Below, in pieces: positions 26,322 to 27,412 of a stretch of 30,324 bases of DNA. Each line of letters opens with the position of its first letter. Position 1 is the stretch's first letter. A model generated the notes under the pieces. It ran no database searches, had not been told where the DNA came from, and was given only the letters and a program-made list of their open reading frames with translations. A program made the translations under genes and the position numbers. Source of the stretch: a virus; IMG/VR virus record IMGVR_UViG_3300045988_066580, positions 1-30,324 of that record; one strand, written 5' to 3'.

Positions 26322-26813
26322 TCAGTGATTTTCCCTAATCACGAAACTTGCAGTTTTGACACGTCTTAACGTTTTGAATAAATCTTTGCAGAGAGTAGTC
26401 TTGCCCGGGGAAGGAGTGAAACCATTACGCACAAAACGCCAAGCATCATAATGCAAAAGCGCTTTTTTCATGGCTGGGTTGCTTGTCTGCAAGAACACGT
26501 CATATGAGCCGTTCTCCATATGCGCTATCCGCGTGGCTAACAATCGGCCTAACCCTATTCCCTGCCAATCTGGGTGAATCACAATACGATGAATTCTCTT
26601 ATATGCGTCACCCGTTTTTTTTGGATTGAATATCACAGCGCAAAAACCTATAGGCATATTTTCGTGGAAAAGCTCATAGCATTTAGCAGTGGGAGACATT
26701 GCGGAGGTCAAATAGTGATAACGCTTAAATCTCGCCCACTCGCTTCTTTCACATCTTCGGATTGTGAATTTTCTTGGAGTGGGCTTGAACCTTTTGGGTC
26801 TAGCATCTCGCAT
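26322..26813 (-). CDS. GNAT-family acyltransferase
   Basis: RIVIHPDWQGIGLGRLL is GNAT motif A (Q-x-x-G-x-G). 163 aa. It overlaps the upstream ATPase ORF by 106 nt in another frame. Confidence 0.7.
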   Translation of the reverse strand: MRDARPKRFKPTPRKFTIRRCERSEWARFKRYHYLTSAMSPTAKCYELFHENMPIGFCAVIFNPKKTGDAYKRIHRIVIHPDWQGIGLGRLLATRIAHMENGSYDVFLQTSNPAMKKALLHYDAWRFVRNGFTPSPGKTTLCKDLFKTLRRVKTASFVIRENH

Positions 26814-27412
26814 TTATCAGTGTCATAGACCCAATCCGGCTGTAACCAATCAAGTATATCCCTGTGACATGTAACCGCGATGAATTTTCCACCGAATCGG
26901 TGCAGTCTTTTATGTAATGCGATGCAAAGGTTTTGGGCAACGTCCCTATCCACCACGCTCGTGAACTCGTCAAAAGCCACGGGGGAAGAATCTGCGGAAA
27001 GCAACGTGTATGCCAAGTCAGCTCTCATTTTCTCACCATTGCTCAGCACTCCATACGGCTTGAGCCATGATGGAACACTAGAAAAGCCAAGACTAGTGAA
27101 CATCTTAGTGATATCCGACACTGAATGCCCTTCCGGCATATCCATTACAACCGATGGATTACGTTTTTCAGGCAATTGGACGAAGCAATTCCTAAACAGT
27201 TGATTTGCTATAGTGGTTTTACCTGAACCACTAGAACCGACAATAACGCCAATATTCCACTTATCAGGGATAATTATCTCCCCTTGGAAATGCTCGGTAA
27301 TCTCCGGTATATTATAATCAAAATCAGAGCGAATAGTGGACACTCTGAAATCATTAATAGGTGGGTGTGAAGTGCGTGTAATATCTATTTTCAGATGGTT
27401 ATTATCTTGCAA
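26708..27412 (-). CDS. ABC-type ATPase-like protein
   Basis: Walker A GSSGSGKT, signature-like LSNGEKMR and Walker B VAFDEFTS. TTG start. The last ~32 codons are probably the GNAT N-terminus read out of frame. Confidence 0.7.
   Translation of the reverse strand: MQDNNHLKIDITRTSHPPINDFRVSTIRSDFDYNIPEITEHFQGEIIIPDKWNIGVIVGSSGSGKTTIANQLFRNCFVQLPEKRNPSVVMDMPEGHSVSDITKMFTSLGFSSVPSWLKPYGVLSNGEKMRADLAYTLLSADSSPVAFDEFTSVVDRDVAQNLCIALHKRLHRFGGKFIAVTCHRDILDWLQPDWVYDTDKCEMLDPKGSSPLQENSQSEDVKEASGRDLSVITI

Follow-up and report, generated by a model that had tools for sequence, protein, structure and literature searches.

Does a pair of overlapping open reading frames (ORFs) in a phage genome encode two proteins, the remains of one, or a single enzyme joined by a change of reading frame during translation? 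The question is posed by positions 26322 to 27412 of a 30,324-nt stretch of viral DNA, IMG/VR record IMGVR_UViG_3300045988_066580, which in its full length we refer to as the window. On the minus strand, which carries all of the window's features given below, an ORF for an ABC-type ATPase (26708..27412; 234 aa, TTG start, taken here as the zero frame) overlaps by 106 nt an ORF for a GNAT acyltransferase (26322..26813; 163 aa, ATG start), the frame of which is -1 relative to that of the ATPase. Our direct reading of the sequence matched the initial annotation of this locus in the two ORFs, in the length of their overlap, and in the four motifs reported within them. That annotation had left a choice among a fusion gene split by a frameshift, a programmed frameshift, and internal initiation at the ATG at 26813. 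The comparative data described here argued for the second of these, such that programmed -1 frameshifting is quite probably the best reading of the ATPase-GNAT overlap, as judged from sequence conservation, and spoke against initiation at the ATG, which is not conserved.

A probable single gene in two reading frames

Joining the two frames in silico by a -1 shift gave a protein of 363 aa with the junction ...CEMLDPK|RFKPTPRKF.... This fusion matched phrog_11143, a family of unknown function, with an E value of 4e-79, residues 19 to 333 of the 363 aligning with positions 10 to 321 of the 357 in the profile, and a full-length match to that family held only for the in-silico -1 fusion. At E <= 1e-10, the fusion had more than 7,000 homologues in a metagenomic protein collection, and those with 40 to 47% identity to it were single proteins of 350 to 370 aa with Pfam domains of both kinds, ABC_tran and GNAT. 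When aligned with 22 single-ORF homologues (40 to 45% identity), the fusion was colinear with them, the catalytic motifs of both domains were invariant, and the frame junction fell in the interdomain linker, which is variable among the fused homologues. An AlphaFold2 (AF2) model of the fusion had a predicted local distance difference test score (pLDDT) of 83.7, reaching 86 to 88 across the junction, and a predicted template modeling score (pTM) of 0.76. The profile and structure searches that had been proposed for the fused product thus recovered the full family match together with the ABC and GNAT folds. Cultured phages with the fused form include phages of Gordonia, Arthrobacter, Pseudoalteromonas, Porphyromonas, and Leptospira. 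The closest homologues of all (62 to 96% identity) were ATPase-only ORFs of 231 to 236 aa, each with a nonconserved tail of the form ...DPKxSS...IxI-stop. On these comparative grounds, the two overlapping ORFs are one conserved phage gene.

Residues 1 to 207 of the zero-frame ORF make up the ATPase, and the 27 residues that follow are an out-of-frame tail. The earlier suspicion that this tail is the GNAT N terminus read in the wrong frame proved correct, since it corresponds to the conserved N-terminal linker of the GNAT half. Among 23 aligned sequences, invariant residues lie in the Walker A motif GSSGSGKT (27238-27215; G59, S61, G62, G64, and K65) and in the signature-like motif LSNGEKMR (27046-27023; L123, S124, and G126). 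The Walker B motif VAFDEFTS (26980-26957), which runs into a D-loop (FDEFTSVVD), has an invariant D148 and E149, and the H-loop histidine (26866-26864, in the dipeptide CH; H183) is likewise invariant. Between Walker A and the signature there is no conserved glutamine as a Q-loop candidate, and D90, M92, and P93 are conserved instead. The window protein itself scored below threshold against Pfam ABC_tran (22.5 bits versus a cut-off of 25, P-loop only), and many fused homologues carry a precomputed PF00005 match. The family profile matched the signature-to-Walker B region of solved ABC ATPases (E = 2.5e-13), and Foldseek superposed the model on the nucleotide-binding domains of MalK and MacB (E about 1e-8). 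We class the ATPase as a divergent nucleotide-binding domain of the ABC type.

The GNAT half carries motif A, WQGIGLGRLL (26567-26538), in which Q284, G285, G287, and G289 of QGIGLG are invariant in the alignment. It passed the Pfam cut-offs for both Acetyltransf_1 (27.9 bits; cut-off 20.7) and Acetyltransf_7 (28.2 bits; cut-off 27), and the AF2 model of the domain (pLDDT 84.8) has the GNAT fold, with many solved GNATs found by Foldseek at template modeling (TM) scores of 0.55 to 0.65. In both structure models, the ORF overlap is confidently predicted to encode the first strand and helix of this fold (beta1-alpha1), so that initiation past the overlap would leave the GNAT incomplete. Extra stop codons were seen in the -1-frame GNAT part at two loci, L023 (about 4640) and L102, the Streptococcus phage Javan420 (about 1400), and judging by these two the acetyltransferase half seems to be lost occasionally.

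The frame break and the RNA around it

We classified 96 loci by the relation between the two frames and found 73 in frame, 23 at -1, and none at +1. In the clade to which the window belongs, represented in hundreds of assemblies, the proposed site of the shift is the heptamer C_CCA_AAA (26792..26798; zero frame gaC CCA AAA), which is unchanged in 19 of 20 members, with varying codons on either side of it. This is a canonical X_XXY_YYZ heptamer, and a -1 slip there yields the fused protein by way of a -1-frame continuation (26322..26792) that comprises the linker and the GNAT domain in 156 codons plus a stop. The heptamer is also retained in L023, where the -1-frame stop lies further on. An upstream Shine-Dalgarno-like stimulator was present in some members only (GGAGGU in L014 and GGGG in L009 and L010).

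If the gene had instead undergone fission, the ATPase and GNAT would be separate polypeptides, the latter starting at the ATG at 26813 or arising by termination-reinitiation at a TTG (Leu) codon. The window does have an ATG (26811..26813) that opens its -1 ORF, separate GNAT ORFs of 87 to 126 aa are annotated in GenBank and by gene callers, and a TTG overlaps the zero-frame stop in Lactococcus phage P335, L012, L013, and the window. However, the ATG is probably not a functional start: it has no Shine-Dalgarno sequence upstream, it is absent in most relatives, and its counterpart in L008 (96% identical) directly precedes a stop. The TTG is the codon for a conserved leucine, that of YHYL, and appears elsewhere as TTA, CTG, or CTA. 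At least 11 of the 23 frameshifted loci are without any ATG, GTG, or TTG in the relevant stretch, and in 9 loci the -1 frame is shut by a stop immediately 5' of the heptamer. A GNAT starting after the overlap would lose beta1-alpha1, yet the residues encoded there are conserved in the -1 frame (F.I.RC.R.EW..F.RYHYL). The ratio of nonsynonymous to synonymous substitution rates (dN/dS) was 0.10 to 0.15 for the -1-frame part and 0.06 to 0.15 across the upstream ParB-like gene, the ATPase, and the -1-frame GNAT. The combination of purifying selection on the overlap with the lack of a conserved GNAT start favors programmed -1 frameshifting and leaves fission unlikely.

Loss of a single nucleotide, by a random deletion in a fused gene or through an assembly error, would look much the same if one A were missing from the A4 run, and other lesions are on hand, namely, two nonsense codons in the window's ParB-like gene and the extra GNAT stops in L023 and Javan420. 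The same break at the same heptamer nevertheless occurs in more than 20 loci spanning 62 to 96% identity, from many samples and from isolate genomes, and the breaks are only ever at -1 and never at +1. Two clusters, one with 164 member sequences and the other with 1,533, contain the ATPase ORF; their members come from many independent assemblies, and an identical ORF is present on nine contigs. This recurrence excludes sequencing error. Because both frames are under purifying selection, a randomly frameshifted or split-fusion pseudogene, one of the options raised initially, is very improbable. Transcriptional slippage, which typically needs longer homopolymers, was also considered and is unlikely, the runs here being only A4 or U5.

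A stem-loop predicted by folding (26734..26784; minimum free energy [MFE] -21.3 kcal/mol, z = -3.7) may stimulate the shift. Its 5' arm, GCCCACUC (26784-26777), begins 7 nt past the heptamer, and its 3' arm, GAGUGGGC (26741-26734), lies in the codons for E-W-A. An 8/8-bp G+C-rich stem with the same 5' arm is possible in 18 of 18 distinct clade sequences, the 3' arm being at 26741-26734 in 13 of them, including the window, and 13 nt nearer in the other five; we scored these two registers separately. Compensatory changes were found at three positions within a five-sequence subclade. For five of seven representatives, folding z scores were -3.7, -4.0, -3.3, -2.6, and -3.6, and for the other two they were -1.2 and -1.6. 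When the equivalent linker-to-Trp region of in-frame homologues was used as a control, the median MFE was -24.7 kcal/mol (z -2.4) for 21 frameshifted loci versus -6.6 kcal/mol (z -0.1) for 59 fused loci (Mann-Whitney p = 2e-8).

Some observations count against slippage at this site. RNAalifold gave only -3.15 kcal/mol for the clade as a whole, which we attribute to the two registers of the 3' arm. What covariation there is comes from a single subclade and is of modest extent, and relatedness of the sequences as well as coding constraint on the E-W codons confound it. One clade member, L017, has C_CUA_AAA instead of the canonical heptamer. The ATG at 26813 lies in the -1 frame upstream of the heptamer and would thus permit separate initiation in the window genome taken by itself. 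Finally, the fused homologues do without an ATPase-only product, so such a product is not generally needed.

The same -1 layout recurs in a second clade, formed by Lactococcus phage P335, the Streptococcus phages phiNIH1.1, MismyG, Javan141, Javan420, and GBSInt8.1, and Oenococcus phage unk162. The ATPase of this clade ends ...IIII-stop in the zero frame, and the GNAT carries on at -1. In the six Streptococcus and Lactococcus phages, the -1 frame opens just 3 to 4 codons before an invariant CAG GUU UUU C (GG_UUUUU), which is followed by a CCCCAC/GUGGGG stem with compensatory changes in MismyG and Javan141; the Oenococcus phage has a canonical A_AAG_GGC. A rough neighbor-joining tree keeps the two frameshifted clades apart and, as a sequence-based reconstruction, is compatible with either one or two origins of the frameshift.

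Ribosomal slippage is annotated in none of the seven GenBank records of the second-clade phages (L001-L003 and L099-L102). All seven label the ATPase "ABC / iron siderophore transporter," and the GNAT annotated there is a short ORF minus the first strand and helix, with none annotated in phiNIH1.1. The ParB-like gene is labeled "DNA modification methylase" in unk162, Javan141, GBSInt8.1, and Javan420. These labels are likely to be systematic misannotations. Phage records, those of dairy and streptococcal phages included, accordingly list a transporter and a truncated "hypothetical protein" for what appears to be one ATPase-GNAT enzyme.

On the reading preferred here, programmed -1 frameshifting, ribosomes would translate the ATPase from the TTG at 27412 and be paused at C_CCA_AAA (26798-26792) by the hairpin 7 nt downstream, where a fraction would slip back one base. 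Those that slipped would read on in the GNAT frame to give the 363-aa ATPase-GNAT, and those that did not would make the 234-aa ATPase-only protein. The frameshift would then set the ratio of ATPase-only to ATPase-GNAT protein. ABC ATPases act as ATP-bridged dimers, and such a ratio could matter for dimers of this kind. In the searchable literature, to which the PRFect paper and the review of Atkins et al. belong, we came across no mention of the -1 frameshifted form. The conserved -1 frameshift is a new element in a family that is itself already known computationally. It looks like a deeply conserved case of recoding in a nonstructural phage enzyme gene, for which the in-frame homologues provide a natural control as to why a phage keeps the frameshift.

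The ParB-like partner and the genomic setting

Of the 93 loci with upstream DNA, 92 have a ParB-like gene as the immediate upstream neighbor, on the same strand. The homologues are not consistently separate and unlinked genes, which was one part of the outcome that had been set down as fatal to a joint function; most are fused and ParB linked. In the window, this ParB/Srx-like gene (27391..27924; 177 codons, own stop TGA 27393-27391) has TGA in place of each of its two tryptophan codons, and the protein with both tryptophans restored matched phrog_620, "ParB-like partition protein," at E = 1.8e-40 (PHROG matches ranged from 1.8e-40 to 1e-17). The restored protein scored below threshold against Pfam ParB_N (22.9 bits versus a cut-off of 26.3), and relatives carry a precomputed PF02195 match. 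Its EGHGR aligns with the GHTR of homologues (GHxR motif), and both tryptophan positions align as well.

As read from the sequence, the end of the ParB-like gene and the start of the ATPase overlap by 22 nt (27391..27412), with GAAGG 6 nt upstream of the ATPase TTG. Annotations of P335, phiNIH1.1, and unk162 show an overlap of this same length, as do the gene calls for L008-L016, and it probably reflects translational coupling. A frameshift from ParB into the ATPase was considered and ruled out, the conserved arrangement being a 22-nt overlap with its own start codon.

The two TGA codons (27786-27784 and 27618-27616) recur in an independent, 99.97% identical assembly (L103), and the ParB frame is intact, with TGG at both sites, in five relatives (L008, L017, L104, L105, and L106). 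One of these, L105 (97.5% identical), has an otherwise identical ParB protein with ten synonymous differences. For ParB, dN/dS between the window and L008 was 0.06, with no relaxation. Global recoding of UGA to tryptophan was rejected: stop-to-stop ORFs were no better under code 4, TGA ends real genes, and the tryptophans of the ATPase and GNAT are encoded by TGG. The TGA codons are either a recent double knockout in a viable lineage or opal codons that are read through. In the latter case, they could act as a leaky attenuator of ParB, and reading by near-cognate tRNA-Trp would restore the wild-type protein.

Downstream of the module, terL was present in 61 loci at a median distance of 445 nt, in most cases separated from it by a small TerS-like ORF, and the genes upstream were for replication and recombination (SSB, RusA, NinG, and VRR-NUC). 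Clustering of neighbor genes in search of DNA-modification partners yielded only terS/terL, sigma-factor-like, NinG, RusA, VRR-NUC, and SSB genes. By gene order, ParB and ATPase-GNAT form a unit where the replication genes give way to the packaging genes. What had been described as an accessory island wedged into the packaging module is instead a conserved module whose usual site is beside terS/terL. The gene next after the fused gene is annotated as an aspartate decarboxylase in Jace (L004, 5110-5535), as a "tRNA-methyltransferase" in BiggityBass (L005, 1823-2473), and as a phosphoribosylglycinamide formyltransferase in a Porphyromonas phage (L007, 5149-5622). These annotations, none of them family-wide, might point to the acyl donor or to additional steps of modification.

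In the window itself, two small ORFs upstream of ParB (28599-28171 and about 28180-27921) had been put forward as small-terminase candidates; they had no Pfam match, and their sole PHROG match was a weak one to a family of unknown function. The segment was also said to be AT-rich, and it is: its G+C content is 43.4% versus 51.0% for the window, a level as low being reached by only 1.2% of equal-sized windows, and the equal-sized window with the lowest G+C content in the whole 30 kb is 26551-27641, so that this is the most AT-rich kilobase of the stretch. Directly 3' of the GNAT stop is a terminator-like hairpin of 9 pairs (26316-26295). The promoter box at which the segment was thought to end exactly did not materialize, in that a consensus scan found no sigma-70-like site at that end and the count of such sites in the region was not above that in shuffled sequence. 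An extended -10-like element, TGATATATT (26296-26288), without a -35 element, overlaps the hairpin; both elements (26316-26288) are consensus matches only.

Beyond the hairpin lie tRNA-Ser(GCU) (26196-26111), a tRNA-like gene (25972-25898; Rfam tRNA, 39.2 bits), terL (25786-24437), and the portal gene (24302-22167). The tRNA-like gene has normal acceptor, D, and T arms, a U1-C72 mismatch, and no anticodon, its anticodon arm being a GCUAGC-UUCG-GUUAGC hairpin with a UUCG tetraloop; to judge from this sequence, it cannot decode. The same anticodon-less form occurs in L017 (5607-5680), and in L008 (4593-4696) a 36-nt insert replaces the anticodon loop. In these two relatives (~90% identical), tRNA-Ser and the tRNA-like gene are separated by an additional tRNA-Gln(UUG) (L008, 4482-4554; L017, 5481-5553) that the window is without (about 26027-25972), and the tRNA cluster is therefore variable.

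The window is probably a complete phage genome of ~30.3 kb, with relatives that span 28 to 31.7 kb. Near-identical DNA was found in neither cultured phages nor E. coli genomes, and a scan of GTDB genomes for the host returned only two distant matches to metagenome-assembled genomes. The window's terL is closest (53%) to those of the bee-gut Bifidobacterium phages BlindBasel1 and BlindUri1, and one clade member (L010) encodes WhiB. Together these hint at an actinobacterial host, although the G+C content of the window is only 51%.

Possible function and known counterparts

In the function that we propose, the ParB-like partner would guide the enzyme to DNA, engagement would be driven by the ABC domain through the binding and hydrolysis of ATP, and the GNAT would move an acyl group from acyl-CoA to a DNA base around the time of packaging. 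The explanation as a whole, that of a frameshift-joined ATPase-GNAT that forms a module with ParB and transfers acyl groups to DNA, is one toward which we lean. The initial annotation had suggested acyl transfer to DNA or tRNA, possibly with ParB; the 92 of 93 ParB linkages and a published prediction, taken up below, agree with this suggestion. Several results pull the other way. The GNAT domain is structurally nearest to GNATs of a generic kind that act on proteins and small molecules (RimI, Naa50, and GNA1; TM 0.55 to 0.62), with nothing nucleic acid specific among its structural matches, and the closest matches of the ATPase are transporter and ABC-F type domains rather than DNA ATPases of the SMC/Rad50 type. 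Moreover, no modified base has been reported in the searchable literature for any phage that carries the module, and our search of the literature found no experimental work on the ATPase-GNAT family. Because the GNAT is generic and the ATPase is of the transporter/ABC-F type, ParB-guided, ATP-dependent acyl transfer to DNA, which is proposed by analogy, is only tentative.

With the same architecture, the target might be a protein or a small molecule, for example, a host defense protein, a packaging protein, or a signaling nucleotide, and the role one of anti-defense or takeover. The nearest structural neighbors of the GNAT, protein N-acetyltransferases and small-molecule GNATs, are what such a target would lead one to expect, some phage GNATs, Rac of phiKMV-like phages among them, do acetylate host proteins (PMC7824862), and the Porphyromonas phage record marks a small upstream ORF that overlaps the ATPase-GNAT start as an "acr candidate." A DNA substrate, however, fits more easily with the near-obligate pairing with ParB and with the position at the replication/packaging junction, and there are precedents for ParB-like partners of DNA-modifying enzymes; a protein or small-molecule target is a possibility that we do not favor. 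The remaining candidate substrate is RNA. TmcA (PDB 2zpa), like the present protein, is a P-loop NTPase followed by a GNAT, and Foldseek ranked it 5th for the whole model (E = 3e-8 over 404 columns). A TmcA-like enzyme might acetylate the neighboring phage tRNA or a host tRNA, and two tRNA-type genes do lie directly downstream in the window, a tRNA-Tyr lies just upstream in MismyG, and the BiggityBass "tRNA-methyltransferase" is just downstream. But the structural match to TmcA is loose (TM 0.29 and 0.17); TmcA has a helicase-type NTPase module and a tRNA-binding domain, whereas here the P-loop domain is ABC-type and the partner that is conserved is ParB rather than an RNA-binding domain. With the GNAT domain alone as the query, neither TmcA nor Mom was among the best 50 structural matches. 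There are no tRNA genes in 15 other clade loci, tRNAs flanking the module only in the window's closest relatives. The suggested link to tRNA and TmcA is therefore weak, and a TmcA-like RNA enzyme is improbable.

A more elaborate version of the DNA proposal, and a doubtful one, is a ParB-loaded, ATP-driven ABC-GNAT machine that places an acyl mark of a new kind on phage DNA at packaging. In this version, the conserved -1 frameshift of several phage lineages, those of Lactococcus P335 and Streptococcus pyogenes prophages included, would fix the proportion of ATPase-only to ATPase-GNAT subunits such that the active ABC dimer is asymmetric and bears one acyltransferase head, and in the window genome ParB would be throttled by the opal codons. 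With its more than 7,000 homologues, found beside terminase genes, the module is a strong candidate for a DNA acylation or antirestriction system, and it is available in tractable hosts through L. lactis P335, Gordonia phages, and Leptospira phage LE4.

Contrary to the initial annotation, which did not recognize a described phage system here, the architecture has been noted computationally, and the frameshift alone is without record. The prediction of a DNA-modification system of this kind is said to have been made originally by Iyer, Zhang, Burroughs, and Aravind (NAR 2013). In the restatement of Iyer et al., Viruses 2021 (PMC7824862), the predicted DNA-modification system is a "GNAT coupled with an ABC ATPase." That system, which corresponds to phrog_11143, shares with the present one an ABC-type ATPase followed by a GNAT, a phage context, and a full-length profile match, but its description is computational and was based on fused proteins, and the -1 form is added here. 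Another counterpart is Mom of phage Mu, a GNAT-fold enzyme that acylates a DNA base (PMC7824862) and that, unlike the present protein, has no ATPase.

For the partner gene, there are counterparts in which ParB-like proteins activate phage DNA-base dioxygenases, as in the ParB-dependent 5mYOX T-dioxygenases (PMC13229309), or in which DpdB, a ParB-like ATPase, drives the insertion of 7-deazaguanine into DNA (PMC12839542), and ParB-methyltransferase fusions exist as well (PMC12704722). Like 5mYOX and DpdA/DpdB, the module described here has a small ParB/Srx-fold NTPase beside a putative DNA-base-modifying enzyme, is phage borne, and lies near terminase genes. The partner in those systems, which requires the NTPase, is a dioxygenase or a transglycosylase, whereas here it is a GNAT with its own ABC ATPase.

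As for the recoding itself, the frameshift in the G/GT genes for phage tail assembly chaperones is the main case in the training data of PRFect (PMC10885494). There too, a -1 shift conserved among phages determines how much of a short protein is made relative to a version with a C-terminal extension, and the GG_UUUUU of the Firmicute phages fits the PRFect "twofive" motif class. The present case differs in that it affects a nonstructural enzyme gene outside the tail module and in that most members of the family are without the frameshift. Programmed -1 frameshifting in E. coli dnaX gives rise to tau and gamma (reviewed in PMC5009743). The two share a -1 shift at an X_XXY_YYZ heptamer with a downstream stem-loop and the production of short and long forms of a P-loop ATPase. 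In dnaX, however, the shifted frame ends almost immediately to give the short product, whereas the shift proposed here would add a whole enzymatic domain, in which respect it resembles those of retroviral gag-pol or of insertion sequence (IS) element transposases.

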